Below are positions 4,408 to 54,795 of a DNA stretch of 64,000 nucleotides, one piece after another. The first letter of the stretch is position 1. Each line of letters starts with the position of its first letter. The position numbers and the translations under genes were made by a program. Source of the stretch: an uncultured delta proteobacterium (GTDB taxonomy: Bacteria > Myxococcota_A > UBA9160 > SZUA-336); contig CAVPHD010000011.1 in assembly GCA_963704165.1 (NCBI GenBank), forward strand, positions 160,001-224,000, given 5' to 3'. The notes below the pieces were generated by a model. The model did no database searches. It saw nothing but the letters and a program-made list of their open reading frames with translations, and had not been told where the DNA came from.

Positions 4408-6130
4408 CTACTCGGACACGCCGGTCGCGTGCCGTGCCGCGACGTACGCAAACGTGCATGCGGGTCCCAGCGTCGCGCCCGCGCCCGGGATAGGTGCGGC
4501 CCATGACCGACGCCGAGCAATTGCCGATCGGCGTACAGACCCCGGATCGGTGCGCCCGCGCCGTCGAGCACGCGCGCGTGCGCATCGGTCACGAGTCCGC
4601 CCTTCGTCCCGAGCTCACCGGGATGCGCGACCATCGCGTAGATACGGCGGGGTCTCGATCGCACCGAGACAGGGGTTGGGGCCGACCTTGGCATCGCCGT
4701 AGTAGCGATCGTAGTCCGTCTCGCCGCGGTGGAAGTCGAGATCCTTTCCCGTCCGCGCGTACCCGTTCACCTTCTCCACCGTCGCGCGCAGGCGCCCGGG
4801 ATCGAGGCCGAGCTGGGTCGCGAGTCCCTCGATCGTGTCGGCCTTCGCGAGGTAGCCCTGCCGGAGGCGCTTCGGCAGAACCCAGTCGGGCTGCTGCGCG
4901 CCGGGAAGCAGGGGGCCGACGGGGTACTTCTTGCGGAACGTGGCGTCGAAGATCAGGTACGCGGGAACGCACGACGCGTCGGCGCTGTGCTTCTCGTACA
5001 TCGCATTCACGACGTCGGTGTAGGGAGCGGCCTCGTTCACGAAGCGTTCGCCGCTCCCGTTCACGAGTATGCTTCCCGGCAGCGACTTCTCGATCACCAG
5101 CAGGCGCGCGCGCCCCTCGCCGGGGACCCGCGTCGTCGGCGTCCACCAGGCCTCGTCCATGAGCGCGGTCGCAGCGCCGACGCCCTCCCCCATGCGCAGC
5201 GCGTCGCCCGTGTTCTCGGGATTGGCGCACGTCCAGTCGGCGGACGTCGGCTTCGGCAGGTAGCGCTCGCGCAGCCCGGGATCGTTCTCGAATCCGCCCG
5301 CGGCCATCACGACGCCCCGGCGCGCGCGAATCCGGATCGCGCGACCGTCGCGCTCCGCCACGACACCGACGACGCCTCCCGTCCTCGACGACGAGCTCGC
5401 GCGCCGGGGTCTCGAGCCAGAGGCGAATGCCGCGATCGGCCAGCGACGCCCGCAACATTCCGACCAGCGCGTTTCCCATCGCGAGATTCCGGTCGCGCTT
5501 CGATCGGAAGCGCCAGCGAAGATCGAAGGCGTAGCGGAACATCAGCTTCAGCGTCAGCCCGACCCAGCCGGGAGCGCGCGTGAGCAAGTCGCGCGCCTCG
5601 GGAATCGTCATGAAGATCCGCCCCATGATCAGCATCTGCGGGCTCTGCTCGCGCATGCGCAGGAGCTCATCGCCGAGAACCTTCGCGTTGAAGCTGGCGG
5701 GCTCGATCGATCGACCTCCTGGCTTGCTCCCGGCGACGCGCGGGTAGTAGTCCGCGTACTCGGGCAGCGCGACCATGCGAAGTCGCGTCCGCTCGCACAG
5801 GTACCGGACCATCTCCGGTCCACTGTCGAGGTACGCCCGGATGCGATCGTCCGAGACACTTCCGCGTGTCAGCTCGCGCAGATACGTCCACGCCTCGGCC
5901 GGTGTGTCGGGTACGCCGGCGGGACCCATCAGGTGGTTGTTCGGGATCCAGAATCCGCCCCCCGACATCGCGGACGAGCCGCCGTAGCGGTCGCCCTTCT
6001 CGATCAGGAGCGTCGTGCCTCCGTGATCGTGCGCGGCGAGCGCCGCGGTCATGGCGCCCGCGCCGGAGCCGACCACCAGCACATCGACCGTCTCGTCCCA
6101 GACCGGCCCGCTCGCTTCGCTCATGTCCAC
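4408..6130 (-). CDS. kstD: 3-ketosteroid delta-1-dehydrogenase-like FAD protein, frameshifted (about 5380, 4640, 4530)
   Basis: GSGAG FAD motif, GGSSAMSGGGFWIP, YADY, NEAAPY, GTKGG and YPG motifs across frames; steroid gene context. Confidence 0.75.
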
Positions 6131-6160: not shown

Positions 6161-6809
6161 TCAGCTCCGCCGGCCGCGAAGCAGGTAGCGCGTGACGCCG
6201 AGCAGCTCTTCCCGGAACGCGGCGATCCGCGCGGCGCTCGGCGGCTTGCCGCGGTTCCGGCGATCCAGAAGCGGATCGCCGGTCACGAACCAGACCGTGG
6301 CCCCGGCCAGGATGCTGACGAGATGCGCCGGCGACACCTGCCGCACGACGCCGTCCCTTTGACCTTGCTCGATGCCCGCGAGCACCATCGCGTACATCGG
6401 ATCGACGAGCCGGCGGACGTCGGGGCGCAGCTCCCCCGCGGAGTCGGCCAGCTCGCGCATGAACAGGCGGGCCAGCGTCGGGCGCTCGCCCGCGTACGCG
6501 ACCCAGGCGTCGATCATCGCCTCGATGCGCGACGCATGCGAGTCGTCGCTCTCGGAGCGCCGCCTGAATCCGCTGCGAGAGCGGCTCGAACGCGGACTCG
6601 AGCACGGCCTCGTAGAGCGTCTGCTTGTCGCGGAAGTGGTAGATGACCGCGGCGCGCGTGATCCCGATGCGCTCGGCGATGTCCTCGAGCCGTGCCGTCG
6701 CGAAGCCGCGCGCGGCGAACTCCTGCTCGGCCGCCGCGAGGATCAGCTCCGGCATCCGCTCGGCGGCCGGTGCAGCTCGCCGGGAGCTCGCTCGTTGGCT
6801 GACCGCCAT
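6161..6809 (-). CDS. TetR/AcrR family regulator, frameshift near 6560
   Basis: N-terminal HTH ILAAAEQEFAARGF...IYHFRDKQTLY; C-terminal part in ORF 6161..6517. Confidence 0.85.
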
Positions 6810-6816: not shown

Positions 6817-6844
6817 ATCTTACTCAGGAGTCAGGCCGTGTCAA
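6817..6844 (-). promoter_or_regulatory. sigma70-type promoter TTGACA-16-TAAGAT containing operator CTGACTCCTGAGTAAG; likely leaderless tetR transcript
   Basis: Minus strand reads TTGACA cggc CTGACTCCTGAG TAAGAT accgcag ATG. Confidence 0.75.
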
Positions 6845-12894: not shown

Positions 12895-12903
12895 CCGACG
12901 CGC

Positions 12904-13807: not shown

Positions 13808-14500
13808 GTGCAGCTGTCCGCCCGCTCGAGTCCGGCCGCCTCTCCGCGCGCGTCGCGAAAAGGGGATCTCACGGCCGGCCGCATCCTCGACGCGGCCGAG
13901 GAGCTCTTCGCGGAGCGCGGCTACGCGGGCACCACCCTGCGCCAGATCGCGACGCGCGTCGGCCTTCGCAACCCGAGCCTGTACAACCACTTCCCGAGCA
14001 AGGAATCGCTCTACGCGGCCGTGCTCGAGCGCGGACTGCGGCCGGTGCTCGAGGCCTTGTCCGAGCACACCGCGGGTGGCGGCGCGTCGAGCGGCGATCC
14101 GCACCAGCTCGTCGGGCGGATGATGCGACTGCTCAGCGCGCGACCGAGCCTGCCGCGATTGATTCAGCACGAGACGCTCTCCGGAGGCGATCACCTCGGG
14201 CCCGCGTTGCGCGAGTGGATCGAACCGATCCTGCGCCGCGCCCGCGAGGCGGTCGAGGCGAACCCGGCGGCCGGCCGCTGGGAGGCGGACCAGATCCCGC
14301 TGCTCGTCCTCGCCATGTACCACGCCGTGGTCGGCTACTTCACGATCGCGCCGTTCTACCGGCGGATCGACGGCGAGGATCTTCTCGGCGAAGCGGCGCT
14401 CGAGCGGCAAACGCGTTTCCTCGGCGAGCTTTCGCGCGCCCTGCTTCCGAATCCACCCGAGAGCACGAAGCGCCGCGCTCCGGCGACTACCAGGGAGTGA
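13808..14500 (+). CDS. TetR/AcrR family regulator
   Basis: ILDAAEELFAERGY...SLYNHFPSKESLY. Confidence 0.9.
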   Translation: MQLSARSSPAASPRASRKGDLTAGRILDAAEELFAERGYAGTTLRQIATRVGLRNPSLYNHFPSKESLYAAVLERGLRPVLEALSEHTAGGGASSGDPHQLVGRMMRLLSARPSLPRLIQHETLSGGDHLGPALREWIEPILRRAREAVEANPAAGRWEADQIPLLVLAMYHAVVGYFTIAPFYRRIDGEDLLGEAALERQTRFLGELSRALLPNPPESTKRRAPATTRE

Positions 14501-32741: not shown

Positions 32742-33903
32742 GCGACCACTCCTTCGGCGTGCAGACGCTCGATCTCCGCATCGCTCACGCCGGCGCCGCG
32801 CAAGAGCTCGCGCGTGTCGGTGCCGGACCCCGCGCGGATCTCGCTCGATCGTTCGCGGCTCGCCCCGGCCAGGATCGGGGCGAGCTGGCGCAGCGCACCG
32901 TGCTCCGCATGCGTCGCCGTCGTGAACGATCGGCGTTCGCCGAGGTGCGGATCCTGAATCAGCTCCGGAACCGAGTAGACCGGCGACACGCAGGTATCTC
33001 GCGGCGCCAGCTCGGCGATCCACTCGTCGCGATCGCGGCACGCGAAACGCCGCGCGGAAGGCCGCGCGGATCTCGTCCTGCCGCTCATCGTCGAGCTGGT
33101 GGGGAATCCAGACCTCGAGACCCAGCGCCCGACACAGATTCGCGTAGAACGCCGGCTCGATCGCGGCCACCGCGATCGAGCGGCCGTCGCGCGCCGCGTA
33201 CACGTCGTAGCAGGCGTAGCGGCCGGTCAGGATGTCGCTTCCCGGCCCCGGCTCGTCGCCCGGTCGCGAGAAAGCCGTCGATCGAGAGCGACATCAACGA
33301 GAGCACACCGTCGGTGACCGAGACGTCGAGGTGCATCCCGTCGGACGAGCGCCCGCGCCGCAACAGCGCAGCGAGGATCGCGATCGCCGCGTGCATGCCG
33401 CCGCCCGCGGCGTCGGCGACGCTGGCACCCGGAAGCGCCGGAGTCCCGTCGGCCCGCCGGCCCGTGCACGCGAGGTAGCCGCCGAGCGCCAGGTAGTTCA
33501 GATCGTGCCCCGCCCACTGCGCGTAGGGTCCGGTCTGGCCGTAGCCGCTCGTCGAACAGTAGACGATGCGCGGATTCAGACGCCGGACCTCGTCGTAGCC
33601 GATGCCGATCCGGTCGGCGACGCCGGGACGGAAGCTCTCGATCCAGACGTCGGCGGATTCCACCAGGCGCAGCAGCGCGCGCCGACCCTCGGGATGCTTC
33701 AGATCGACCTGCAATCGCCGCATGACCCCGACCCGCGCCGTAGCTGTGGAACGGCGGCTGGATCTGCACCGAGCCTTTGCGCGGCGGCGGTCCGACCTTG
33801 ATCACGTCGGCGCCGTAGTCCGCGAGGATGCGCGAGCAGCGCGAAGCCGGCCCGACGCTCGAGAAGTCGAGCACGCGGAAGCCCTCGAGGAGAGGTTGCG
33901 CAC
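32738..33903 (-). CDS. Alpha-methylacyl-CoA racemase-like family III CoA-transferase, frameshifted
   Basis: AGHDLNY, ADAAGGG, AIEPAFY motifs, typical of Mcr/AMACR. Confidence 0.7.
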
Positions 33904-33915
33904 GACACGGCCCGC

Positions 33916-35110
33916 TCAGAAGTTGCGCGGGAGCCCGAGCTTGCGCCGCGCGATGATGTTCTTCTGGATCTCCGACGCGCCGCCGCCGATGGTCTCGACC
34001 ACCGTGCAGCGATAGCTCGTGTCCGGCCGTCCCCTGCATCGGCGCGTCCGCCTCGCCGATGCGCAGCTGCGCCGTCGGCGCCGCCGATGTCGAGCGACGC
34101 GTTGGCGACGCGCTGCGAGAGCTGCGTCGCGTAGAGCTTGTACTCGACGCCTCGCCGGTCGGCGCGGCCCCACCCTTCATCGACTTCGCGACGAAGCGCA
34201 GGCCCGAGCACGCGCGCGACCTCGGTCTCGGTCAGCGAGCCGCGCGATCCGCTGCGCGGATGACCGGGTCTTCGCGCAGCGGCTGGCCGTCGCGCTCCTC
34301 GCTCGCGACGTACTCGCGCAGAGAGCTCGACCCGCTCCTCGATCGGCGAGAACGTGAACATCGTGAAGCGTTCGAGATCGAGCGCTTCGGAGATGTACTG
34401 AAAGCCCCGGTTCAGCTCGCCGACCCGGTAGTCGTCGCCGACGTAGACGTTGTCGAAGAACACCTGGTTGGTGATCTCCGCTCGCCGATCGTCGGCATCG
34501 CGCTGCACGGTCAGTCCCGGGGAATCCATCGGGAGCAGGAACAGGGTGATGCCGTCGTGCTTGGCCCGCGTCGGAGTCGGTGCGCGCCCCGACCCAGTAC
34601 CACTCGCGCGAAGTGCGCCGAGGTCGTGAAGATCTTCTGGCCGTTGAGCCGCCAGCCGTCGCCCTCGCGCGTCGCCTTGAGCTGCATCGCGGCGGCATCG
34701 GAGCCCGCCTGCGGCTCGCTGTAGCCGATCGCGAACTCGATCGTCGTTGCGTGAGGATCTTCGGCAGGAACTCGCGCTTGAGCTTCTCGCTGCCGTGGCG
34801 GATCAGCGTCTTGCCGATGATGCCGACGCCCTTGCCGATCTGCGGCGCGCCGCCGGCGCGCCAGGCACTCGTTCAGCAGGAACTCGTAGATCCCGTCGGC
34901 CTCGCTGCCGCCGTACTCCTTCGGCCAGGTCATGCCGAGCCAGCCGCGCTCGCCGATCTTCTTCATGAAGGCGCGACGCTTCGGCGTGTCGACGAGCTGC
35001 GCCATGTTCTCGCGGCTCGGGTCCATGACTTCGGGATCGTGGTTCTCGTCGAGGAAGCGCTCGACCTCCACCACGAACGCCTTCTGCTCGTCGGTGAAAT
35101 CGAAATCCAC
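33916..35110 (-). CDS. Acyl-CoA dehydrogenase, many frameshifts
   Basis: WPKEYGG, IGYSEPQAGSD, NGQKIFTT, TIGGGASEIQKNII. Confidence 0.8.
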
Positions 35111-35123: not shown

Positions 35124-35149
35124 CTCACTCGCGAGTCAGATGGAAACTA
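35124..35149 (-). promoter_or_regulatory. Operator CTGACTCGCGAGTGAG overlapping the RBS, with a possible -10 (TAGTTT) just upstream
   Basis: Matches the motifs at 6819-6834 and 44135-44150. Confidence 0.55.
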
Positions 35150-42057: not shown

Positions 42058-44082
42058 TCAGTCCGCCAGCGCTTCGGCCACCAGCTCCGCGATGTCCGCG
42101 GCCCGGATCGTTCCGGCGGGGTCGCGCGCACGCAGGCCATCCTCGAACATCTGCAGGCAGAACGGGCACGAGACGGCGGCGGTCGAGGCTCCGCTGGCCT
42201 TCACGTCCTCGATTCGCGTGTAGTTGATGCGCGTCTCCGGCGCGTCGTCCATCCACGCGTATCCGCCCCCGGCCCCGCAGCAGCGCGAGCGCGACCGGCC
42301 CGGCTCGATCTCCCGCAGGGCTCCGGGCCGGGACACGCCGGCGACGACGTCGCGCGGCGGTTCGTACACATCATTGTGGCGGCCGAGGTAGCACGGGTCG
42401 TGGTACGTGACCGACTCGAGCTCCCTGCGGAGCCGGAGCCGGCCCTGCTTCATCAGCTCGTCGATCAGGACGCTGTGGTGCACGACCTCGTAGCGGCCGT
42501 CGAAGTCGGGGTACTCGTTGCGCAGGGTGTTGAAGCAGTGGGGACACGTCGTGATGATCTTGCGCACGCCGTAGCGTTCGAAGGTCTCGATGTTGGCGCG
42601 GGCGCAGGTCTGGAAGCTCAGCTCGCCGCCGACCCGCCGCGCGGGATCCCCGCTGCACGATTCCTCCGCTCCGAGCACCGCGAAGTCGACCCCGCCCGCC
42701 TTCAACACGCGCGCCGTCGCGCGGGTGACGGCGATGTTGCGATCGATCATGGCGCCGGTGCAGCCCACCCAGAACAGGTACTCCGCGCGGTCGCCGCGTC
42801 CGAAGACCTTCAGGTCGAGATCGGCGAACCAGTGCTCCCGGTCCCGTCCGGATCCCGCCCACGGGTGCATGCGTTCGTCCATGCCCCGCAGCATCTGCTG
42901 GACCGGATCGGGCATCTTCGCTTCGCTCATGACCAGGTAGCGGCGCAGGTCGACGAGCTTCGGAACGTGCTCGATGAACACCGGGCACTCCGTCTGACAC
43001 GCGCCGCAGGTCCGGCAACCCCAGACCTCGACCTCGAGGACCGCCGGTGGCTCCGCGCCCGAGGCGCCATCCCCGAGAAGCGGAATCCCGTCGCCCGACC
43101 CGTCTCCGATCCGCTCGAGATGATTCTTGAGGTCGCGGATCAGCTTGCGCGGACTCAGCGGCACGCCGCTCGCGTGCGCCGGGCAGACCGATTCGCAGCG
43201 GCCGCAGTTGGTGCAGGAGTCGAGGTCGAGCAGATCCTTCCAGCTGAAGCCCTCGATGCGTCCGACGCCGAGCGAGACCTCGCTCTCCGGATCCGCATCG
43301 AGCGCGGCCTCGATGTCGAAGTGCTCGAGCTTTCCCGACGGTGCGAGATTGCGCGTGAAGACGTTGGCGAGTCCGAAGGCGATGTGGTCGAGCTTTCCGT
43401 AGGCGACCCAGCCGATGAAGCCGAACGCGGTCAGCGCGTGAAACCACCACATCCAGCGATGCAGCACGAGCAGGGTCGCGTCACCGAGCGGCTGCAGCGC
43501 CAGGGCGATCGCATGCCCGCCCGGCGACCAGAGCGCGAGCTCCGGCTGCTCGCGCAGCTCGCTGGCCGCGATTCGCAGCCCCTCGACGGCGAAGCCCTGC
43601 ACGAAGACGAGCGCGAGCAAGGCCAGCGCGATCCAGTCGTCGAGCACGGTGTGCAGGTGCGCGGGTCGGCTGAAGGCGCGCCGCCACGCGGCCATCGCGA
43701 TTCCAACGAGCCCCGCGATTCCGAACAGGTCGGCGAAGAGCGAGTAGCCGAGGTAGAACGAGCCGCGCAGGAAGTGCACGCCGCTCCAGTCCTGAATCGA
43801 GATCAGCGACGTCGCGACGAGCTCTCCGCAGAACCCGTAGAAGATCAGCATGTGCGCCGTGCCCGCGACCGGATCGCGGAGCTGTCGGCGGCCGCTCAGC
43901 ACCTGCACGACCAATCCACGCAGGCGCTCGATCGGCCGGTCGTGGCGGTGCAGCGGCCGGCCGATCCGCCACAACCGCTGGCGACGGACGAGCCCGCGCA
44001 CGAAGAGCGCGAGCGCCAGAAGCGCGAACGGATAGATCAGCGCCTCGCCGACGACGTTCCAGTAGATCTCACGCGTGGGCAA
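42058..44082 (-). CDS. Membrane Fe-S oxidoreductase, FadF/EtfD/EMO type
   Basis: Transmembrane N-terminus with His residues, CTNCGRCESVCP, CRTCGACQTECP, CPHC, YHDPC, CCG, CPFC. Confidence 0.85.
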   Translation of the reverse strand: MPTREIYWNVVGEALIYPFALLALALFVRGLVRRQRLWRIGRPLHRHDRPIERLRGLVVQVLSGRRQLRDPVAGTAHMLIFYGFCGELVATSLISIQDWSGVHFLRGSFYLGYSLFADLFGIAGLVGIAMAAWRRAFSRPAHLHTVLDDWIALALLALVFVQGFAVEGLRIAASELREQPELALWSPGGHAIALALQPLGDATLLVLHRWMWWFHALTAFGFIGWVAYGKLDHIAFGLANVFTRNLAPSGKLEHFDIEAALDADPESEVSLGVGRIEGFSWKDLLDLDSCTNCGRCESVCPAHASGVPLSPRKLIRDLKNHLERIGDGSGDGIPLLGDGASGAEPPAVLEVEVWGCRTCGACQTECPVFIEHVPKLVDLRRYLVMSEAKMPDPVQQMLRGMDERMHPWAGSGRDREHWFADLDLKVFGRGDRAEYLFWVGCTGAMIDRNIAVTRATARVLKAGGVDFAVLGAEESCSGDPARRVGGELSFQTCARANIETFERYGVRKIITTCPHCFNTLRNEYPDFDGRYEVVHHSVLIDELMKQGRLRLRRELESVTYHDPCYLGRHNDVYEPPRDVVAGVSRPGALREIEPGRSRSRCCGAGGGYAWMDDAPETRINYTRIEDVKASGASTAAVSCPFCLQMFEDGLRARDPAGTIRAADIAELVAEALAD

Positions 44083-44124: not shown

Positions 44125-44152
44125 TTGACTTCGACTGACTCATGAGTAAGCT
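44125..44152 (+). promoter_or_regulatory. Promoter TTGACT-16-TAAGCT containing operator CTGACTCATGAGTAAG
   Basis: Same layout as the tetR promoter at 6817-6844. Confidence 0.75.
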
Positions 44153-44211: not shown

Positions 44212-44799
44212 ATGGCGATCACCCTGAAGGAGTCCTTCGAGGTCGGCGCCGCGATCGACGACGTCTGGCGCTTCATGCTCGATCCGCGCTCGGTCGCCGG
44301 CTGTCTCCCGGGCGCGACCCTCGAGGAGACCGGCGACGAGCGCACGTTCGACGGGACCGTGAAGATCCGCGTCGGGGCGATCACGGCGAGCTACCGCGGA
44401 CAGGTGCGGCTGACGCGCGTCGATCCGCAGACGCACGAGGTCGAGATGCTCGCGGAGGGACGCGAGACCGGCGGCGGCACCGCGCGCGGCACCATCTCGA
44501 GTCGGCTTCGCGTCCGACCGGAGGGCGGTACGGAAGTCCTGACCGAAGCGAACGTCGATCTCTCGGGCCGCATCGTGCAGGTCGGACGCGGAATGATCGA
44601 AGGCGTCGCGCGACAGCTCTTCGTCGAATTCTCGTCGCGCGTCCGCGAGCGCCTCGAGTCGAACCTTGCCGACGCACCCCCGTCGGAAGTCGCCGCCCCG
44701 CGCGACGATTCGGTTCGGATCCTCCCGCTGATCCTGCGCGCGATCTGGGAGCGGATCGTCCGCCTGTTTCGGGGCGGTCCGCGGAGCGCAAAGAAATGA
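44212..44799 (+). CDS. CoxG-like SRPBCC protein
   Basis: VAGCLPGA, VKIRVGAI, LSGRIVQVGRGMI. Confidence 0.85.
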   Translation: MAITLKESFEVGAAIDDVWRFMLDPRSVAGCLPGATLEETGDERTFDGTVKIRVGAITASYRGQVRLTRVDPQTHEVEMLAEGRETGGGTARGTISSRLRVRPEGGTEVLTEANVDLSGRIVQVGRGMIEGVARQLFVEFSSRVRERLESNLADAPPSEVAAPRDDSVRILPLILRAIWERIVRLFRGGPRSAKK

Positions 44800-46007
44800 A
44801 CGCCGCGCTCGGAGGTCTGGTCGTGATCGACCTGACGACCGAGTTCTGGTCGTCGCTCGGCGCCGCGATGCTCGGCGACTTCGGCGCCGACGTGATCCGC
44901 ATCGAGAGCGGACGCGAGCCGCTGGCCCCGCCACCCGATCCCGACGAACGAGCCTCGTGGAGCTATCGCCTCGAACTCGCCAACCGAAACAAGCGCAGCG
45001 TCGCGCTCGACCTCGCGCGCCCCGAGGGCCGCACGCTTCTGCGCGAGCTCATCGCGAAGGCGGACGTCTTCGTCTGCGATTGGCCGCGCGTGGACGTCGA
45101 CGAAGGCGGCTGGGACTACGAGAACCTCGCGCGGACGAAGCCCGGCCTGATCTACGTTCGCGCGACCGGCTTCGGACCGGAGGGTCCCGACCGCGACCTT
45201 CCCGCGCTCGACGAGCTCGCCGCCGCGCGCACCGGAATGATGCCGATCCTGCCGCAGCCCGGTCAGCCTCCCGTCCATTCGGGAAGCGGGCAGATGTACA
45301 CGACGGTGATGCTCGCGTTCGGCGTTCTGACGGCGCTGCACCACCGCGAGGAATCCGGCGAGGGTCAGCTCGTGGACGTCTCGCTCTACGCCGGAAACAT
45401 GTACGGCGCCGCACTCGACATCCAGGCGTTCCTGGCCATGGGCGCGGCCGCGGGCGAGCGCTTGCTGCATCCGGTTTCGCGCCACGACTCCGGCAATCCG
45501 ATGAGCGGAAGCAGCATGCTCTATCCGACGCGCGACGGGCGCTGGCTCACGCTGACCATGCCCGACACCGATCGCTGGTGGCCGGGACTCGCCGCCGCGG
45601 TCGGCCTCGATCCGAAGGATCCGCGCTTCGACAGTCACGAGAAGCGCTGCGAGCAGAACCGTCTCGAACTGATCCACGTGCTCGAGCAGGCGTTCCTGCA
45701 GCACGACGGCGATCACTGGCGCGCGGCCTTCGCCGAGCACCAGCTATCGGCCGACGTGATCGAGGACTACGCGTTCCCCGCCGACGATCCCCAGGCCGAG
45801 CGCAATCGCTACATCCTGAACCTCTGCGACCCGAGCCTCGGCGCCGTTCAGACGCTGGGGTTTCCGATCTTCATGAGCGAGACGCCGGCGCGCCTTGCCC
45901 GGAGCGCGCCCTGCGCCGGACAACACGGCGCCGAGATCCTCCACGACCTGCTCGGCTACACCGAAGAGCGTATCGTCGAGCTGGCGTCCAGCGGAATTCT
46001 CGGCTGA
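44796..46007 (+). CDS. Family III CoA-transferase subunit (catalytic Asp apparently absent)
   Basis: NRNKRS; GSGQMYTT at the Asp position. Confidence 0.85.
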   Translation: MNAALGGLVVIDLTTEFWSSLGAAMLGDFGADVIRIESGREPLAPPPDPDERASWSYRLELANRNKRSVALDLARPEGRTLLRELIAKADVFVCDWPRVDVDEGGWDYENLARTKPGLIYVRATGFGPEGPDRDLPALDELAAARTGMMPILPQPGQPPVHSGSGQMYTTVMLAFGVLTALHHREESGEGQLVDVSLYAGNMYGAALDIQAFLAMGAAAGERLLHPVSRHDSGNPMSGSSMLYPTRDGRWLTLTMPDTDRWWPGLAAAVGLDPKDPRFDSHEKRCEQNRLELIHVLEQAFLQHDGDHWRAAFAEHQLSADVIEDYAFPADDPQAERNRYILNLCDPSLGAVQTLGFPIFMSETPARLARSAPCAGQHGAEILHDLLGYTEERIVELASSGILG

Positions 46008-46028
46008 GAGGACAAGGACGGGACCCCG

Positions 46029-47240
46029 ATGGCCACAGCGCTCGACGGAATTCGCGTCATCGACCTCACGGTCTGGTTCCAGGGGCCGGTCGCCGCGCAG
46101 CACCTCGCGGACTTCGGCGCGGAAGTGATCAAGGTCGAGCGCCCGCAGGGCGGCGATCAGGGGCGCGGGGTCCGCAGCATCAAGGCCGTGCCCGTCGGCG
46201 ACTGGAACCAGTACTTCCTCGTGATCAACCGCAACAAGAAGAGCCTCGCGCTCGATCTGAAGAAGCCCGCGGGACGCGAGATCCTGTACCGCCTGGTCGA
46301 GGAGTCCGACGTCTTCCTGACCAATCTGGGCGCGGAGAACCTCGCGAGCTGGGATTTGTCGTACGAGAAGCTCCACTCGATCAACCCGCGCCTCGTCTAC
46401 GCGACGAATAGCGGCTACGGACCGTTCGGCGGCATCGACAAGCCCTCCTTCGACATGACGGTGCAGGCGTTGACCGGTCTGATGGCCCGACTCGGCGAGC
46501 CGGGCGAGCCGCCGATCTACCTCGGCATGGGATCGGGCGACTCGATCGGCGGACTGATGGCGGCGCTCGGGATCCTGCTCGCGCTTCACCATCGCCGACG
46601 CACGGGGCGGGGACAGCGCCTGGACGCCTCTTTGTACGGCGCTCAGCTCTTCCTCGCCGCACCGAGCCTGCAGGCGTATCTGGCGACGCGAAGCGCTCGC
46701 CATTCACGACAGCGCTCGCGAATGGACGCGACCCATCCGCTCTGGAATCGCTACCCGACGCGCGACGGCTGGATCTTCCTGTGCATGCGGGAGAGCGACG
46801 AGAACTGGCGACGTGTCTGCGAGGGGCTCGAGGATCCGGAGCTCGAACGCGAGCCGCGCTTCGAGAACTCGGAGCTTCGAAGCCGGAACGCACGCGCGTT
46901 GGTCGAGCGCCTCGACGAATCGCTTCGCCGACGCACGTCGGCCCAGTGGATGGAGCGCTTCCGCCGGCTCGACATCGTCGCGAGCCCGATCGGGAACCTG
47001 GCCGACGTCACGTCGGACCCGCAAGCGTGGGCCAACGACTATTTCATGGAGAGTTACTGCGAAGAGGTGAAGCGGGACGTGAAGATCCGCGGCCTGCCAG
47101 TGGGGCTCGGACGAACGCCCGGAACGGTGCGCGCGCTGGGACCGGAGCTCGGTCAGGACACCGAGCTGATCCTGACCGAAACACTCGGCTACACCTGGGA
47201 CCAGGTCGACGAGTTCAAGGCGAAGGGAGCGATCCCGTGA
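46029..47240 (+). CDS. Family III CoA-transferase
   Basis: NRNKKS, SGDSIGG. Confidence 0.9.
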   Translation: MATALDGIRVIDLTVWFQGPVAAQHLADFGAEVIKVERPQGGDQGRGVRSIKAVPVGDWNQYFLVINRNKKSLALDLKKPAGREILYRLVEESDVFLTNLGAENLASWDLSYEKLHSINPRLVYATNSGYGPFGGIDKPSFDMTVQALTGLMARLGEPGEPPIYLGMGSGDSIGGLMAALGILLALHHRRRTGRGQRLDASLYGAQLFLAAPSLQAYLATRSARHSRQRSRMDATHPLWNRYPTRDGWIFLCMRESDENWRRVCEGLEDPELEREPRFENSELRSRNARALVERLDESLRRRTSAQWMERFRRLDIVASPIGNLADVTSDPQAWANDYFMESYCEEVKRDVKIRGLPVGLGRTPGTVRALGPELGQDTELILTETLGYTWDQVDEFKAKGAIP

Positions 47241-48478
47241 GTCCCAGCGCCCGCGGACCTCTCGATGGAATTCGCGTGCTGGATCTCGCGACGATGCTCG
47301 CCGGTCCGTACGGCGCGACCCTGCTCGGCGATCTCGGCGCCGACGTGATCAAGGTCGAGTCGCACTTCGGAGACGACAGCCGGCATCTCGGTCCCGAGCG
47401 CGACGGGGAGCGCACCGCGTTCCTCAGCCTGAACCGGAACAAGCGCGGCGTCGTGCTCGACCTGCGTCGCGAGAGCGCGCGGCGCGCGTTCGAACGTCTG
47501 CTGCGGACCACCGACATCCTGATCACCAACGTCCGCGAGCCCGCGCTCTCGCGCCTGGGACTCGACTACGCACAGGTGTGTCAGCACCGGCCGGACGTCA
47601 TCTGGATCGGCGTCACCGCATTCGGAGCGGACGGCCCCTATGCCGGACGGCCGGGAATCGACTTCCTCGCGCAGGGCTTCGCCGGGCTGCTCGCGCTGAA
47701 TGGCGATCCCGACGGCGACCCCGTGCGCGTGACCGTTCCGCTGGTCGACGTGATGACGTCGCTCCTGGTCTCGTCGTCCGCGCTCGCCGCCCTGCACTCG
47801 CGCTCGGCGACGGGCCGAGGTCAGCGCATCGACCTGTCGCTCCTCGACGCGCTGGTGCACGCGCAGACGAGCGCGATCGGCGCGTATCTGGTGGCCGGCG
47901 AAGTCGCGCCGCGAACCGGGAATCGCAGCCAGTACTTCGCGCCCTCCGGCATCTACACCTGCGCCGACGGCGAGCGCGTGGTGATCACCTGCCCCTCGGA
48001 GAAGTTCTTCCGAAAGCTCTGCGATTCGCTCGACGTCGACTGGGTCGCCGACCCGCGCTTCGCGAACATCGAGCGCAGGCTCGAGAACGTCGAGGCTCTC
48101 GACGCGCTGCTGCAGGAGCGCTGCGGGAGCCTGCCGCGCGCCGCGCTGATCGAGCGGCTGGTCGCCGGCGACGTGCTGACGGCTCCGGTGAACGAGCTTC
48201 CCGACGTCGTGCAGGATCCGCAGATCCGCCACAACGGCATGATCGCCCGCGTCGAGCACGCGCGCCTCGGGCCGATCGAGATCGTGGGCACGCCGCTGCA
48301 CCTGCAGGGAACGCCCGCCTCGGTCCGCCGCGCGCCTCCGCTGCACGGCCAGCACACCGTGGAGCTGCTCCTCGAGCTCGGCTATTCGGTGACGGAGATC
48401 GAGGATCTCGTCCGCGACGGCGCGGCGGCGACCGATCTCGACACCGCAAAGGCCGCGCGAGGCGAACGGAACGAGTAG
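47237..48478 (+). CDS. Family III CoA-transferase
   Basis: NRNKR, LVDVMTS. Confidence 0.9.
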   Translation: MSPSARGPLDGIRVLDLATMLAGPYGATLLGDLGADVIKVESHFGDDSRHLGPERDGERTAFLSLNRNKRGVVLDLRRESARRAFERLLRTTDILITNVREPALSRLGLDYAQVCQHRPDVIWIGVTAFGADGPYAGRPGIDFLAQGFAGLLALNGDPDGDPVRVTVPLVDVMTSLLVSSSALAALHSRSATGRGQRIDLSLLDALVHAQTSAIGAYLVAGEVAPRTGNRSQYFAPSGIYTCADGERVVITCPSEKFFRKLCDSLDVDWVADPRFANIERRLENVEALDALLQERCGSLPRAALIERLVAGDVLTAPVNELPDVVQDPQIRHNGMIARVEHARLGPIEIVGTPLHLQGTPASVRRAPPLHGQHTVELLLELGYSVTEIEDLVRDGAAATDLDTAKAARGERNE

Positions 48479-48492: not shown

Positions 48493-49380
48493 TCAGTCCT
48501 CGGAGCTGCCCTCGTCGTATTCCTTCGCGAGCTTGCGTCGCAGCTCGCTCTCGCGCTCGCGCAGGCTCCAGAAGCGCGGCGGGCGACGCTGCGAGAAGGC
48601 CGCCCCCCCTTCCCTTCCCTCGGGCTGGTCGAACCAATCGGGATAGAGCTGGCTCGAGATCACGCCCATCTCGGCGTACCCGTCCATCTGCTGGTCGAAC
48701 GCCGCCTTCAGGACTTCGAGGCAGCCGGGGCTGGCCAGAAGCAGATCCTCGCACCACGCATCGACGGCCTCGTCGAGCCGCGCGCGCGGAACGACACGGT
48801 TCACGAGTCCCATCTGCAGGGCCTCGTGCGCGGTGTAGCGCCGGCACAGCATCCACATCTCCCGCGCGCGCTTGGCCCCGACGACGTTCACCAGATAGGG
48901 AACGAAGAAGCCGTCCGCGGGGCTCGAGACGCGCGGACCCGCCTGACCGAAGATCGCGTCCTCGGCGGCGATCGTGAAGTCGCAGCAGTACGCCATGTGA
49001 TTGTGCCCGCCGAGGCAATAGCCCTGCACGACGGCGATCACGGGCTTTCGCGACAGCCGGATCAGACGGTTGTGCGGATAGCGGTTGTAGAACGCCTCGC
49101 GCAGCCCCCACTTCTCCCACTCGACGTCGCCGCCCGTGCCGAAGTGATCACCGCTGCCCGCGACGATCAGCACGCCGATCGCGGCATCGTGGTTCGCGTC
49201 GTAGAACGCGCGGAACATCTCGTCGACGGTTCGGAGCGTCATCACGTTGAGCTTGTCGGGCTTGTCGATGGTGATGCGCGCCATGCCACCCTGAAGCGTG
49301 GCGTGAATCCGCTTCTCGTACCGGATCTCCTCGAAATCGAGACCCGCGCCTTCGACCCGCCGCCACTCGCCAAAGCTCAT
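48493..49380 (-). CDS. MenB/BadI-like crotonase (possible ring-opening hydrolase)
   Basis: EEIRYEK, GGD, FGQAGPRV, AREMWMLCRRYTA, EGREG. Confidence 0.75.
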   Translation of the reverse strand: MSFGEWRRVEGAGLDFEEIRYEKRIHATLQGGMARITIDKPDKLNVMTLRTVDEMFRAFYDANHDAAIGVLIVAGSGDHFGTGGDVEWEKWGLREAFYNRYPHNRLIRLSRKPVIAVVQGYCLGGHNHMAYCCDFTIAAEDAIFGQAGPRVSSPADGFFVPYLVNVVGAKRAREMWMLCRRYTAHEALQMGLVNRVVPRARLDEAVDAWCEDLLLASPGCLEVLKAAFDQQMDGYAEMGVISSQLYPDWFDQPEGREGGAAFSQRRPPRFWSLRERESELRRKLAKEYDEGSSED

Positions 49381-49997: not shown

Positions 49998-50894
49998 ATG
50001 AAACCGGCCCCCTTCGACTACTTCGCCGCATCGAGCGCGGACGAAGCCGTCGGCCTGCTCGCGAAGCACGGCGACGACGCGATGGTCCTCGCCGGGGGAC
50101 AGAGCCTGCTTCCGCTTCTCAACCTCCGACTCGCGCGTCCCGCGGTCCTGGTCGATGTGTCGAAGGTCGGCGAGCTCGACTACATCCGGGAGTCGGATCG
50201 CGGACTCGAGATCGGCGCGGTGACCTCCAAGCGAAACGTCGAGCACTCGGCGCTCGTGCGCGAGCGCCACCCGCTCCTGCACGCCACCACCTGCTTGATC
50301 GCCCACCCTCCGATTCGCAGCCGCGGAACCGTCGGAGGATCCCTCGTGCAGGCGGATCCCGCCGCCGAGTATCCCGCGCTCGCGGTGGCGCTCGACGCGG
50401 AGCTTCACGTCGCGAGCTCCGAGGGCGAACGGACGATCGCCGCGGACGATTTCTTTCACGGCTTCCTGGCGACGGACCTCGCACCCGGCGAGCTGCTCAA
50501 GTCCGTGCTCTGGCCGAAGCTCGAGCCGGGCAGCGGCTGGTCGTGCCTGGAGTTCGCACGACGCCCGGGCGACTTCGCGCTGGCCGGAGTCGTGGTGACG
50601 GTGTCGCTCGACGACGGCGGCCGCTTCGCGGAGACACGCCTGGTTCCGTTCGGCGTCGGTGCTCGGCCCGTGCGCCTGCGAGATGCGGAGCAGACGCTGC
50701 TCGGCGAGGCGCCGGGCGACGCCGTCTACGAACGAGCGGCGGAACGGGCGGTCGCGTCGCTCGAGCCGCCGCATTCCGACGTCCACGCGTCCTCGGAGTA
50801 CCGCCTGCACCTGATGCGCGTGCTCCTCGGTCGCGCGCTCACCGAGGCGAGCGCGCGTGCGCATCGTCAACGGGAGAACCCGCCGCGTGCCTGA
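49998..50894 (+). CDS. Mo-hydroxylase FAD (medium) subunit, CoxM-like
   Basis: MKPAPFDY, AGGQSL, RSRGTVGGS. Confidence 0.92.
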   Translation: MKPAPFDYFAASSADEAVGLLAKHGDDAMVLAGGQSLLPLLNLRLARPAVLVDVSKVGELDYIRESDRGLEIGAVTSKRNVEHSALVRERHPLLHATTCLIAHPPIRSRGTVGGSLVQADPAAEYPALAVALDAELHVASSEGERTIAADDFFHGFLATDLAPGELLKSVLWPKLEPGSGWSCLEFARRPGDFALAGVVVTVSLDDGGRFAETRLVPFGVGARPVRLRDAEQTLLGEAPGDAVYERAAERAVASLEPPHSDVHASSEYRLHLMRVLLGRALTEASARAHRQRENPPRA

Positions 50895-51375
50895 TCGACA
50901 CCCCATCCGCCTGAACGTGAACGGCCGCGCGCACGAAGGCAGCGCCGAAGCGCGAACCTCGCTCGCGGACTTCCTGCGGCACGAACTCGGACTGACGGGC
51001 ACGCACGTCGGCTGCGAGCACGGCGTCTGCGGCGCGTGCACCGTCCTGCTCGACGGCATCCCGGTCCGCTCCTGTCTCACGCTCGCCGTGCAGGCCAGCG
51101 GGTCGAACGTCGCGACGGTCGAAGGACTCGCACCCGACGGAGAGCTTCACCCGATCCAGCGCGCGTTCATGCAGGAGCGGGGCCTGCAGTGCGGCTTCTG
51201 CACGCCCGGCTTCCTGATCGGCGTGCAAGACCTGCTGCAGCGCAACTCCGATCCGAGCGACGACGAGATCAAGGAAGCGCTCGGCGGTCAGATCTGTCGC
51301 TGTACGGGGTACCAGTCGATCCTCGCGTCGGTGCGGAGAGCCGCGGCCATGCTGCGCCAGGCGAACGGGGCCTGA
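50887..51375 (+). CDS. Mo-hydroxylase 2x[2Fe-2S] (small) subunit, CoxS-like
   Basis: GCEHGVCGACT, QCGFCTPG, CRC. Confidence 0.92.
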   Translation: MPDRHPIRLNVNGRAHEGSAEARTSLADFLRHELGLTGTHVGCEHGVCGACTVLLDGIPVRSCLTLAVQASGSNVATVEGLAPDGELHPIQRAFMQERGLQCGFCTPGFLIGVQDLLQRNSDPSDDEIKEALGGQICRCTGYQSILASVRRAAAMLRQANGA

Positions 51376-51378
51376 GCT

Positions 51379-53799
51379 TTGGCTGGCGAATTCCCCAAGG
51401 ACCCGTCCGGTCTGCCGACCCGCAAGCTCCGCTTCGTCGGCCATCCGGTCGAGCGCGTCGAGGATCCGAAGCTGCTGACGGGGCGCACGCCGTTCATCGA
51501 CGATCTCTCGCTGCCCGGAATGCTGCACTGCGCGATCCTGCGCAGCCCCTACGCGCACGCGCGCATCGCATCGGTCGATCTCGGCGAAGCCGAAAAACTT
51601 CCCGGCGTGGCCGCGGCCGTCTGCGGCGCGGATGCGCTGCGCTGGACGGAGCGCGCGCTGACCGTGCCCGCCGGATGGGGCACGCACTGCCTCGCCACCG
51701 ATCGCGCGCGCTTTGCCGGTGAGCCCGTCGCCGCGGTGGCCGCCACGAGCCGGGCGCTGGCCGAGGACGCGATCGAGCGGATCCGTGTCGACTACGAGCC
51801 GCTTCCCGCCGTCGTGGACGCGCGCGAGGCGGCGAAGCCGGAAAGCACGCCGCTCTTCGAGGAACACGGACACAACGTCATGTTCCAGCGGGTCTTCCGC
51901 TGGGGAGACGTCGATCGCGTCTTCCAGGAGGCGGATCGCGTCGTCGAGGAATCGTTTCGTTGGCACCGCCTGGGCGCGAACCCGATGGAGACGTTCGGCG
52001 TCATCAGCCAGTGGGATCCGGTCGACGGAAGCCTGACCTGTCACGGCAGCTTCCAGTCCCAGTCCCAGATGGCGCTCGGCCGCGCGGCGTCGCTGCGCCT
52101 CCCGTCGCACAAGGTTCGCCTGATCAGCCAACCGCACGGCGGCAGCTTCGGCGGCAAGGGGGGATTCCGCGGCACCGACATCAGCGCGCTCCTCTCGCGC
52201 AAGGCCGGCGGTCGGCCGGTGAAGTGGATCGAGGATCGCATCGAGTACATGTCCGGCGGCGCGAGCCAGTCCTGGGACCGACACTATACGGCGTCACTCG
52301 CGGTACGAAACGACGGCACCGTGACGGGATTCCGCGTGAAGTTGCTCGACGACCTCGGCGCGACCGCCGAGGGGTTCGGGGCCGTCAGCGCCGCCAAACC
52401 CCTGAGCTCGTTCACGGGCTGCTACGCGATTCCGGTGGCCGAGTACGACTTGACGATCGTCGCGACGAACAAGCTGCCCGGCAGTCCGTATCGCGGCATG
52501 GGACCGCCGCCGCACAACCTGGTGCTCGAGCAGCTGATGGACATCGCCGCGCGCGAGCTCGCGCTCGACCCCGCGGAGCTGCGCCGTCGCAACTTCATCG
52601 CGCCCGATCAATTTCCCTACACGATCGCGAGCGGAAACGAGTACGACAGCGGCAACTACGAGGCCGCCCTGAACGAGGTGCTCGAGCTTTCGGACTACCC
52701 CGCGTTGCGCGCGCGACAGGCGTCGGCACGCGCCGAGGGGCGGCTCGTCGGCATCGGAATCGTCAGCACGATCGAGCCCGGCGTCTTCGACTGGAACGCG
52801 TACTCGATCCTCGGGATGCCGAGCACGGGCGTACCCGAGGGCTGCACGGTCGCGATCGACATCCTCGGCAAGGTGCTCGTGCGCGTCGGCTTCGCGCTCG
52901 AAGGTCAGGGGCAGTACACGGTCGCGACCCAGCTCCTCGCGGACTACTTCGGCGTCGAGCTCGACGACGTCAAGGTGATTCCGCAGGACTCCCTTTCGGC
53001 GCCGCCCCACTTCGGTCCCGGCGGCAGCCGGCTCGGCGTGGCGCTGACGGGCGCGGTGCTCGGCGCCGCCAAACGACTCGAGCAGAAGCTCGCGATCGTC
53101 GCGGCGGCGTTGCTGCAGACCGAGCCCGACGCGCTCGAGCTGATGGACGGATCGTTCCGGATCAAGGGCGCACCGGAGGCCGCGATTCCGCTCGCGCAGG
53201 TGGCCGGGACGATGCTCGCGCGAAGCGACCTGCTGCCTCCCGGCGTCGAGCCGAGTCCCGAGGCCACCTACGTATGGACCGCGCCCGGACGCACGCAAGC
53301 CGACGAGCTCGGGCGCGCCAAGAGCTATCTGACCGCGGCGAATGCGTGTCACGTCGTCGGGGTCGAGATCGATCGCGAGACCGGCCGCGTCGAGATCCTC
53401 GACTACTGCATCGCAGACGACTGCGGAACACGACTGAATCCGGCGATCGTCGAGGGCATGATCCAAGGCGGTGTTGCCCAGGGCATCGGCGCGGCGCTGC
53501 TCGAGGAGTACCACTACGACGGGTCGGGCCAACCGCTGACCTCGACGCTGATGGACTATCTGCTGCCGACGATTCACGATGTGCCCGCGATGCGCATGCG
53601 CGCGATCGTGACGCCGTCCCCGTTCACGCCGCTCGGCGCGAAGGGCGTCGGCGAGGGAGCGATGCACACGACGCCCGCCGCGATTCTGTGCGCAATCAAC
53701 GACGCGCTCGCACCGCTCGGGGTGCGCGCGACCGAGATCCCGGCTTCCCCGGAGCGCCTCTGGCGACTCATGCACGGAGCCGGGCCGCGAACTCGCTAG
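51379..53799 (+). CDS. Xanthine dehydrogenase-family molybdopterin (large) subunit
   Basis: GGSFGGK, PYRGMG, GQG, QGIG, KGVGE. Confidence 0.92.
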   Translation: MAGEFPKDPSGLPTRKLRFVGHPVERVEDPKLLTGRTPFIDDLSLPGMLHCAILRSPYAHARIASVDLGEAEKLPGVAAAVCGADALRWTERALTVPAGWGTHCLATDRARFAGEPVAAVAATSRALAEDAIERIRVDYEPLPAVVDAREAAKPESTPLFEEHGHNVMFQRVFRWGDVDRVFQEADRVVEESFRWHRLGANPMETFGVISQWDPVDGSLTCHGSFQSQSQMALGRAASLRLPSHKVRLISQPHGGSFGGKGGFRGTDISALLSRKAGGRPVKWIEDRIEYMSGGASQSWDRHYTASLAVRNDGTVTGFRVKLLDDLGATAEGFGAVSAAKPLSSFTGCYAIPVAEYDLTIVATNKLPGSPYRGMGPPPHNLVLEQLMDIAARELALDPAELRRRNFIAPDQFPYTIASGNEYDSGNYEAALNEVLELSDYPALRARQASARAEGRLVGIGIVSTIEPGVFDWNAYSILGMPSTGVPEGCTVAIDILGKVLVRVGFALEGQGQYTVATQLLADYFGVELDDVKVIPQDSLSAPPHFGPGGSRLGVALTGAVLGAAKRLEQKLAIVAAALLQTEPDALELMDGSFRIKGAPEAAIPLAQVAGTMLARSDLLPPGVEPSPEATYVWTAPGRTQADELGRAKSYLTAANACHVVGVEIDRETGRVEILDYCIADDCGTRLNPAIVEGMIQGGVAQGIGAALLEEYHYDGSGQPLTSTLMDYLLPTIHDVPAMRMRAIVTPSPFTPLGAKGVGEGAMHTTPAAILCAINDALAPLGVRATEIPASPERLWRLMHGAGPRTR

Positions 53800-53817: not shown

Positions 53818-54795
53818 ATGAAAGAAGCCGATCACTTCGTCGCGCTCAGCGAATGCCACATGATGAATCCGCAGTCGATGGAGGAGATGGGGTACTACCC
53901 CGGCTTCACGCGCTGGTGGCAGAGCATCGACGGTGTCATCCGCGCCTGGGCCGGGCGCGATCTGGCGGGCGGTGGCCACATGCCCGCGCCGATCGCGTCG
54001 GAGCTGGTCAAGTACATGGACGAAGCGCGCGTCGACGTGGCGTTCGCGCTTCGCGAGTCGATGATGGACATCAACGGCAACGTGATGCCGATGTCGACCA
54101 ACGCGTTCATCCTGCAACAGATCGAGCCCTACCGGGATCGGCTCTACCTGGAGTGCAACGTCGGACCGGTCATCCGGCGCGGCGTCGAGCACGCGATCTG
54201 GGAGCTCGAGTACCTCGTCAAGGAGCGAAACGCCCGGCTCTGCAAGTTGTACGTCCCCGAAGACGAAGGGCCGCTCGACGACCGCCGCCTCTGGCCCTTC
54301 TACGAGAAGTGCTGCGAGCTCGACATCGCGGTGACGATCCACACCGGCATGTCCTACGTGGTTCCGCAGCCGAGCAAGCACACCCATCCGGGTCTGCTCG
54401 ACGACGTGCTGCTCGCCTTCCCCGATCTCAAGGTGATCGCCTACCACATGGGCTGGCCCCATTCGGAGGAGCTGATCGGCCTGGCCGGCAAACACCGAAA
54501 TCTGTACCTCAGCCTGTCGGGGATCATCGGCTGGTTCCAGCGCGCGCCGTATCGCGGGTATCACATGATCGGCGAAGCGATCCAGTGGGCGGGACCCGAC
54601 CGCATCGTGATGGGCCTCGACCTGCCCTTCGACGACATCGGGCGCGTCGTCGACTGGGTGAGAACCCTCCAGATCCCCGAAGAGCTGCAGCAGAAGTGGG
54701 GATACGCGCCGATCACCGAGGACGACCGCGCGGGAATTCTCGGACGCACGCTCGCGAAGCTCGCCAAGATCGAGCCGACCAAGCGGGTCAAATGA
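53818..54795 (+). CDS. Amidohydrolase_2 family protein
   Basis: PFYEKC, IHTG, HMGWP, GLDLP. Confidence 0.8.
   Translation: MKEADHFVALSECHMMNPQSMEEMGYYPGFTRWWQSIDGVIRAWAGRDLAGGGHMPAPIASELVKYMDEARVDVAFALRESMMDINGNVMPMSTNAFILQQIEPYRDRLYLECNVGPVIRRGVEHAIWELEYLVKERNARLCKLYVPEDEGPLDDRRLWPFYEKCCELDIAVTIHTGMSYVVPQPSKHTHPGLLDDVLLAFPDLKVIAYHMGWPHSEELIGLAGKHRNLYLSLSGIIGWFQRAPYRGYHMIGEAIQWAGPDRIVMGLDLPFDDIGRVVDWVRTLQIPEELQQKWGYAPITEDDRAGILGRTLAKLAKIEPTKRVK

Follow-up and report, generated by a model that had tools for sequence, protein, structure and literature searches.

The 64,000-nucleotide stretch of DNA analysed here (the window) lies in contig C11 of a 3.87-Mb genome (G000; 68% GC, 84% complete) and carries two groups of genes that are 37 kb apart and have a palindrome in common. 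On the minus strand, a gene for a TetR-type regulator is followed by genes for a 3-ketosteroid delta1-dehydrogenase (KstD) and an enoyl-CoA hydratase-family protein, and on the plus strand, a coxG-like gene is followed by CoA-transferase genes and, farther downstream, by genes for a molybdenum enzyme and an amidohydrolase (Table 1). The assembly is rich in errors: in addition to tetR, broken frames are seen in kstD, the acyl-CoA dehydrogenase gene, a nosZ-like gene and several of the CoA-transferase genes. The genome G007, which belongs to the same genus, is 97% complete.

Table 1. Genes, promoters and operator copies of the window
Feature	Position	Strand	Basis
Enoyl-CoA hydratase-family gene, 3' of kstD	3553..4380	-	homology
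kstD/acmB-like gene for 3-ketosteroid delta1-dehydrogenase; frameshift here, G007 copy intact	4410..6124	-	homology
tetR; PF00440 HTH and TetR_C_24/29-like domain; frameshift near 6530-6555 here, G007 copy intact (215 aa)	6161..6809	-	family profiles, G007 comparison
Predicted tetR promoter; -35 TTGACA, -10 TAAGAT; operator CTGACTCCTGAGTAAG at 6834-6819	6817..6844	-	promoter scan; operator in 16/16 orthologue promoters
Second TetR gene; own perfect 16-bp palindrome ACTAGCGGCCGCTAGT at 13776-13791	13808..14500		
Acyl-CoA dehydrogenase gene (frameshifted); heads run of CoA-transferase III, MaoC and second acyl-CoA dehydrogenase genes	33900..35110	-	homology
Third operator copy CTGACTCGCGAGTGAG, between putative -10 and ribosome site of acyl-CoA dehydrogenase gene	35124..35139	-	sequence; this genus only
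Divergent Fe-S/CCG-domain oxidoreductase gene	42058..44082	-	homology
Predicted sigma70-type coxG promoter; -35 TTGACT 44125-44130, -10 TAAGCT 44147-44152	44125..44152	+	sequence; same layout in 12 other genomes
Operator CTGACTCATGAGTAAG over spacer and -10 of coxG promoter	44135..44150	+	sequence, weight matrix, relatives
coxG-like gene (PF06240), first of predicted regulated operon	44212..44799	+	family profile
Three family III CoA-transferase genes (44796-46007, 46029-47240, about 47261-48478)	44796..48478	+	homology
MenB/BadI-like crotonase gene, no operator	48493..49380	-	homology
Genes for xanthine-oxidase-family FAD, Fe-S and Mo subunits; no operator in promoter here	49998..53799	+	homology
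Amidohydro_2 protein gene (325 aa, 37.2 kDa) directly after Mo subunit; candidate SRAH	53818..54795	+	family, size, adjacency

The site before coxG (44125-44152, plus strand) reads TTGACT tcga CTGACTCATGAG TAAGCT, and the site before tetR (6844-6817, minus strand) reads TTGACA cggc CTGACTCCTGAG TAAGAT. The operator 16-mers are identical at 15 of 16 positions (the 28-mers at 22 of 28), each has six complementary pairs out of seven in its arms, and both begin 4 nt past a TTGAC(A/T) hexamer and extend into a TAAG(C/A)T -10 element. The consensus is a 16-bp palindrome, CTGACTC-NN-GAGTAAG, which spans the spacer and the -10 region of both promoters. The letters, the core identity and the 4-nt offset that the initial annotation had given for these two sites were all reproduced. 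The 16-bp spacer, which it had also listed, is indeed shared, but does not set the two sites apart, as TTGAC-N17-TAnnnT occurs 17 times in the genome and has the palindrome in only these two cases; in addition, the third site at 35124-35139 had been overlooked.

A consensus promoter scan listed the tetR promoter (10/12) and did not list the coxG promoter, the -10 of which matches at 3/6 and falls below the scan threshold. The start codon of tetR is located 7 nt past the -10 in the window and 6-8 nt past it across the 16 genomes with an orthologue (see below), and because of this close spacing the tetR mRNA is likely to be leaderless. About 25 bases downstream of the coxG -10 (44159-44183) are identical in G000 and G007 while the flanks diverge. 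A leaderless open reading frame of 17 codons in this region (44159-44212), the stop of which overlaps the coxG start, was rejected, as the stop is not kept in G007. A role of the palindrome as an RNA hairpin was likewise rejected, as transcription is predicted to start downstream of the site and its centre comprises only 2 nt.

The motif is rare in the genome. The exact sequence TGACTCNNGAGTNA occurs four times, three of them inside the window (6820, 35125, 44136), versus an order-4 Markov expectation of 0.13 for the genome and 0.002 for 64 kb. When a weight matrix was derived from relatives alone, the three sites of the window came out on top genome-wide (26.0, 26.0 and 18.5; next score, 12.2); the genome-wide scan that had been proposed to check the motif returned its three best sites from this window. 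The fourth exact match (C1:256117) was discarded as a regulon site, since it has no promoter layout and its surroundings do not match the reference proteins of the window. It should be noted that a window search at two mismatches was uninformative (seven matches versus 13.2 in shuffles) and that the short TGACTCNNGAGTNA by itself is present in 19 of 41 relatives, mostly at unrelated positions. Part of the conservation of the right arm is due to its overlap with the -10; in the promoters of relatives, the left arm is conserved and complementary and the two central bases are variable.

The tetR product has an N-terminal TetR helix-turn-helix domain (PF00440, E 4e-13). The structure model of the intact G007 protein (pLDDT 82, nine helices) has the all-helical TetR fold with a C-terminal ligand domain, and a fold search with this model retrieved TetR structures at Z 16-19. 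With a profile built from three sequences, 49 of 225 genomes of the class matched at E<=1e-45 and 16 at E<=1e-60; the latter value, placed in a score gap, was taken as the cut-off for orthologues, and as the best 13 candidates were scored per genome, some may have been missed. The 14 intact orthologues form one clade of the tree (99/99), from which the broken G000 and G056 proteins were left off; the 16 genomes are kin and not independent samples. Every one of the 16 has the motif over a -10 immediately ahead of the tetR start, and the next gene downstream is kstD-like. Named records labelled Myxococcota, Deltaproteobacteria or Proteobacteria MAGs contain orthologues with 50-54% identity, which probably overlap the 16 genomes and were not added to the count; it is on the strength of these labels that the class is presumed to belong to the Myxococcota. 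No orthologue was detected in a 401-genome sample of the phylum outside the class (best seven candidates scored per genome), or in five gammaproteobacterial genomes with an SRAH-like gene (best E 2e-48).

Paralogous TetR genes have different palindromes at the same promoter position, e.g. CTACCTGCGCGCAGGTAG before P450-linked members, and the motif co-occurs with the TetR upstream of kstD and not with the paralogues, in accordance with the proposal of the initial annotation that it belongs to that regulator. Sister clades L005, L006, L008-L013 and L162-L175 share CTACCTGCGCGCAGGTAG as a clade palindrome and are accompanied by P450 genes, and the clades L014-L019 and L070-L076 have CCGACCGGTCGG and CTACT-N4-AGTAG (tandem in L072), respectively. 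In the sister clades, too, start codons are mostly close to the -10.

The link between tetR and the remote coxG promoter had been proposed from two sites in one genome, together with the expectation that the sites would be conserved upstream of orthologues. This holds for both operons. The pattern TTGAC-N8-ACTCNNGAGT is present in 15 of the 16 orthologue genomes (four of which had helped to define it) versus four of the 209 others, i.e. in 19 of 225, and its reversed control in one of 225. For coxG, which was found in 61 of the 225 genomes, a matrix derived from tetR promoters only was applied to the best 30 of the 61 loci: 14 of 15 orthologue genomes had upstream scores of 19.9-26.5, and none of the 15 others exceeded -5.0. 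The coxG promoter of the sixteenth orthologue genome (G122), checked separately, has no site, and thus the motif precedes coxG in 14 of 16 orthologue genomes versus none of the 15 coxG loci from genomes without the orthologue (best 30 of 61). G025 has no site before coxG, one just after it (18.9) and a weak one before the molybdenum enzyme operon (13.4). The sites, their conservation and their co-occurrence with tetR thus support a shared TetR regulon that would include the coxG-CoA-transferase operon, as the initial annotation had suggested.

In four relatives (G033, G187, G183 and G181), the two operators point inward and bracket one cluster of 31-46 kb; the distance of 37 kb in the window is therefore the span of the cluster. 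A scan of 15 orthologue genomes with TDACTCNNGAGTHA returned only the tetR and coxG sites, plus a thiolase-linked TTGACTCNNGAGTCAA site in five of them, and G025 has no exact match to TDACTCNNGAGTHA. Another half-site, GAGT(C/T/A)A, follows 19 bp downstream in 21 of 29 promoters, which suggests that two dimers may bind side by side in many relatives; it is absent in G000 and G007. The start of the divergent Fe-S gene, which might or might not be co-repressed, is 52-68 bp from the site in the window and about 150-170 bp in G033 and G187, and no site was found within 250 bp of this gene in G053. The composition of the coxG operon varies: coxG adjoins the first CoA-transferase gene in the window, a flavin oxidoreductase gene lies in between in G181, and an acetone-carboxylase/hydantoinase-like set of three genes separates coxG from the CoA-transferase genes in G007 (L049:6819-11713) and G053 (L242:11816-16657).

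A metagenome scan (21 of 64 parts) yielded 118 loci, 11 of them with a -35 at the right spacing. Six of these 11 precede tetR (two) or coxG (four), so that every locus before tetR or coxG has a -35, and the remaining five have 27-46% GC and no reference match; 105 of the 118 loci have neither a -35 nor a reference match. At one metagenome locus (L302, 65% GC), a full operator with a -10, and no TTGAC -35, is found a few bases before a thiolase-like gene, which is a possible further member of the regulon.

The third operator copy is specific to this genus: among 16 acyl-CoA dehydrogenase loci from relatives, it is present at one (G007). Palindromes of the ATACG-N3-CGT(A/C)T type were seen at the coxG spot in eight of the 15 genomes without an orthologue (by eye; pattern-confirmed for three), the loci with ATACG-N3-CGTAT in the Fe-S/coxG intergenic region being L370, L376, L378, L380, L381, L382, L387 and L396. 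The same type also precedes the acyl-CoA dehydrogenase gene at six of these 16 loci, from genomes that have the TetR (L402, L403, L404, L406, L407, L408). Judged from these sequences, the occurrence of either this box or the TetR operator is an apparent regulator swap. Sites related to the operator, TTGACTCNNGAGTCAA, are also found in genomes without an orthologue (G036, G198). Perfect TTGACTC-NN-GAGTCAA palindromes are located before acyl-CoA dehydrogenase or thiolase genes (L036, L190, L212, L214, L217, L222, L227), also in genomes without a TetR orthologue, and are possibly the RutR-like box of a sister regulator.

The second TetR gene of the window (13808-14500) heads a P450/ChsH2/Ltp2-like block that is missing from the syntenic region of G007. 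A ring C/D (HIP) gene set with ipdAB, ipdC, echA20, fadA6, ipdF and a fadD3-like gene occupies 7349-13686 and 25674-27326, where neither the TetR operator nor a convincing KstR2 box was found; a search of the intergenic regions of the whole window gave no convincing KstR or KstR2 box.

The enzymes encoded by the cluster indicate its probable function. The best PDB match of the G007 KstD is 7P18 (E 8e-187; 625 bits versus 305 for the next), which is AcmB of Sterolibacterium, and equivalents of Tyr118, Tyr363 and Tyr536, the tyrosines to which catalysis is ascribed (PMC9736390), are present. With 626 bits, KstD is below the NCBIfam KstD cut-off of 789. The large Mo subunit (806 aa) has 72-75% identity to two proteins named 3-oxo-delta1-steroid hydratase/dehydrogenase by IMG; such an AtcA-type name is attached to two of the 120 matches listed, the others having generic names or none. 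Its length is within the range of 802-807 aa given for large subunits of 1-TDHs (1-testosterone hydratase/dehydrogenase, AtcA; Table S4 of PMC11780191). The same study describes SRAH (WP_154715975.1), a 38.6-kDa ring-A hydrolase of the amidohydrolase-2 type that is clustered with 1-TDH, and proposes the pair of molybdenum enzyme and amidohydrolase as a marker set of the pathway. The 1-TDH clusters also hold candidates for later steps that have yet to be assigned, namely a CoA ligase or transferase, an acyl-CoA dehydrogenase, a hydrolase, a hydratase and an aldolase (PMC11780191). The assignment of AtcA and SRAH in the window is likely, and is based on family, size, neighbourhood and the two names. 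The crotonase encoded at 48493-49380 is a candidate for an acetate-releasing hydrolase. Homology and gene neighbourhood thus indicate that the cluster probably encodes the oxygen-independent 2,3-seco route of ring-A degradation; the initial annotation had recognized a steroid regulon, which is supported, and had overlooked this pathway.

Within the class, 58 of 225 genomes carry an SRAH-like gene, 55 carry an AtcA-like gene and 53 carry both; the values for the orthologue genomes are 16 of 16 (SRAH-like) and 15 of 16 (AtcA-like). The SRAH-like gene is also found in 42 of the 209 genomes without the TetR, which is therefore not the general regulator of the pathway. In a gammaproteobacterial order, six of 251 genomes have an SRAH-like gene at 60-68%, and in one of the six, genes for the molybdenum enzyme, CoxG, the Fe-S protein and CoA-transferases lie within the 40 kb examined. 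A plasmid search for the SRAH-like protein returned matches of only about 31%. KshA_C, a marker of the oxygenase route, was not found in G000, G007 (97% complete) and G183 and is present in G033 and G187.

Several regulators of steroid degradation are known, and the TetR described here resembles each of them in part. KstR (Rv3574) is a TetR repressor of ring A/B genes that is released by steroid-CoA and controls 74 genes of the oxygenase route (PMC6678751). The TetR would likewise repress ring-A genes, but KstR serves the oxygenase route, its model NF033703 is not among the 18 NCBIfam matches of the TetR, and its box (TnnAACnnGTTnnA) is absent from the window, in line with the distinction made by the initial annotation. 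KstR2 (Rv3557c) of Mycobacterium and Rhodococcus, the orthologues of which are more than 50% identical, recognizes AnCAAGnnCTTGnT (PMC3068626), and its ligand is HIP-CoA (PMC6678751). The similarities comprise the fold (4W97; Z 17.3, rmsd 2.9, 189 aligned), and, as predicted for the TetR, autoregulation, about three palindromic sites and a small regulon in a steroid cluster. In contrast, the identity in the structural alignment is 18-19%, the targets of KstR2 are ring C/D genes whereas no site precedes ipdAB in the window, and the box given in PMC3068626 is unrelated to the operator, which bears out the difference from KstR2 that the initial annotation had noted.

Outside the actinobacteria, EdcR of Caenibius tardaugens binds TnnCnnTACnAnTnGTAnnGnnA, a palindrome overlapping the -10, and belongs to the aerobic 4,5-seco route of estrogen degradation (PMC8700777). 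The predicted TetR repressor shares with it the control of a steroid ring-A cluster and the palindrome over the -10, but the operator letters differ and the C-terminal PF16859 of EdcR is not listed for the TetR, the two being set apart by motif and family. RutR of Escherichia coli, which has the 16-bp box TTGACCAnnTGGTCAA and acts in pyrimidine catabolism (PMC2475637), ranks high in the profile search and in the fold search (Z 18.6, rmsd 2.8, 197 aligned), and the TGAC..NN..GTCA layout is common to both boxes; the inner bases differ, the identity is 22-26%, TIGR03613 scores 55 bits versus a cut-off of 368, and the process controlled by RutR is a different one. Clusters of the 2,3-seco route with AcmB, AtcABC/1-TDH and SRAH have been described for Sterolibacterium, Steroidobacter and Thauera (PMC11780191, PMC7264893, PMC13707411). 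The window resembles them in its KstD, which is closest to AcmB, in a three-subunit molybdenum enzyme of matching size with an adjacent amidohydrolase-2, and in genes for CoA-transferase, acyl-CoA dehydrogenase, crotonase and aldolase-like proteins. Unlike these hosts, the organism belongs to an uncultured Myxococcota-type class and is known from its genes alone, whereas the published pair is from beta- and gammaproteobacteria only. The word "regulator" does not occur in the main text of PMC11780191.

Taken together, CT(G/A)ACTC-NN-GAGTAAG is very likely the operator for the product of 6161-6809, a TetR that would repress the tetR-kstD operon and the coxG-CoA-transferase operon until a steroid intermediate releases it. 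What can be read directly from the genomes is that the sites are there, where they lie on the two promoters, that they are conserved and that they co-occur with the TetR; dimer binding, repression and release by a ligand are modelled on the behaviour of the TetR family. A TetR dimer that occupies the spacer and the -10 would block RNA polymerase, and a TetR autorepressor with a palindrome over the -10 is a textbook case. Here, the dimer would cover the -10 of the tetR-kstD and coxG promoters, and in this genus the acyl-CoA dehydrogenase run would also be repressed, via a site near the transcription start. KstD would introduce the delta1 double bond, the Atc-like molybdoenzyme and the SRAH-like hydrolase, both outside operator control, would open ring A, and activation and oxidation of the resulting acid would fall to the CoA-transferases and, in this genus, also to the acyl-CoA dehydrogenase. 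The promoter of the atc-like operon has no site in seven of the eight orthologue genomes checked (the exception being the weak site of G025), and it would follow that basal ring opening produces some seco acid. The transferases would convert it to a CoA ester, and repression might be lifted either by that ester or by an upstream 3-oxo-steroid. As the inducer, the CoA ester of the 2,3-seco acid would be our first guess and a 3-oxo-steroid such as AD or ADD a close second, each of them, taken singly, being less likely than not. The fold search singled out no ligand class: KstR2, FadR, AibR, RutR and DarR lie within about 3 Z units, and therefore nothing about the ligand can be concluded from the fold.

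A real TetR regulon could serve the degradation of another alicyclic or terpenoid compound by related enzymes, instead of steroid ring A. The identity of AtcA and SRAH, deduced from family, size, neighbourhood and two database names, the KstD score under the curated cut-off, and the acetone-carboxylase-like trio in the coxG operon of G007 and G053 are in favour of such a substrate. Nevertheless we regard it as unlikely, because AcmB is by far the best structural-database match of KstD (625 versus 305 bits), ring C/D genes of the ipdAB, echA20, ipdC, ipdF and fadD3 type share the window, and the pair of molybdenum enzyme and amidohydrolase equals the marker set of PMC11780191. It is more unlikely still that tetR is a true pseudogene in this genome and that its operators are unused relics, which would be compatible with the preferred explanation for the relatives. 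The frameshift near 6530-6555 and the stops inside the match of the orthologous frame in G056 would fit a pseudogene, but the operators are undecayed, and the many other broken genes, together with the intact tetR, kstD and acyl-CoA dehydrogenase genes of G007, make assembly errors the likelier cause.

That the palindrome is bound by a different regulator, i.e. the second TetR (13808-14500) or an unlinked factor, is very unlikely. The similar TTGACTCNNGAGTCAA sites before acyl-CoA dehydrogenase genes of G036 and G198, both without an orthologue, and before thiolase genes in five orthologue genomes would be accounted for in this way. However, a palindrome of its own accompanies the second TetR gene, and its best match in G007, where all three sites are nevertheless kept, is not a close one (29%). 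The motif is present in 16 of 16 tetR promoters, and none of the 15 genomes without the orthologue has it before coxG (best 30 of 61). We give the least credit to the notion that the element is merely a shared promoter type, e.g. of one sigma factor, and involves no repressor. The fixed position between -35 and -10, and the right arm that forms part of the -10, would be expected of a promoter type, but conservation and complementarity extend to the left arm while the two central bases differ between promoters, the second half-site at +19 is present in 21 of 29 promoters, 15 other promoters of the same spacing have no palindrome, and the paralogues have different ones.

The genomic data thus argue for a small conserved TetR regulon that is real, and its interest is increased by the fact that parts of an oxygen-independent steroid ring cleavage are probably under its control in a group that has not been reported to have this route. 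Neither a regulator of the 2,3-seco route nor the letters of the motif were found in the literature searched, which consisted mostly of papers available without subscription. It is quite possible, although somewhat short of probable, that the TetR and its site constitute the first regulator and operator of the oxygen-independent 2,3-seco pathway, that the TetR senses a ring-A intermediate, that it marks a pathway which roughly one in four genomes of an uncultured Myxococcota-type class possess (53 of 225 with both genes), beyond the beta- and gammaproteobacteria, and that elsewhere in the class a regulator with an ATACG-N3-CGTAT box took over the coxG promoter. The mechanism is old and the assignment would be new, and it would name the protein, the 16-bp site and a handful of possible ligands for the control of oxygen-independent ring cleavage. 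The CoxG-like protein and the three CoA-transferases would be candidates for the unassigned activation step after the opening of ring A. A repressor released by a 2,3-seco metabolite, if confirmed, could serve as a biosensor for anoxic steroid degradation. The 2,3-seco route was described in 2025 as apparently restricted to beta- and gammaproteobacteria, with SRAH and 1-TDH only in denitrifiers there (PMC11780191). The present data suggest a wider distribution that takes in a large uncultured group of the Myxococcota type. This has a bearing on a puzzle posed in PMC11780191, namely that SRAH and 1-TDH had been found only in denitrifying beta- and gammaproteobacteria.

A few additional genes may be mentioned. 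A search of G000 gave no narG above the cut-off. A nosZ-like gene is distributed over several frames in G000 (C4:190693-192543), and the G007 copy is in a single open frame. The window also contains a methanethiol oxidase (MtoX/SBP56)-like gene in two frames (63055-63658). Many alpha subunits of type II DMSO reductases, which we take to be of the steroid C25 dehydrogenase/ethylbenzene dehydrogenase kind, are encoded in G033 (C135), G187 (C133) and G183, several of them in or beside the cluster, and G000 has one broken copy on C9.
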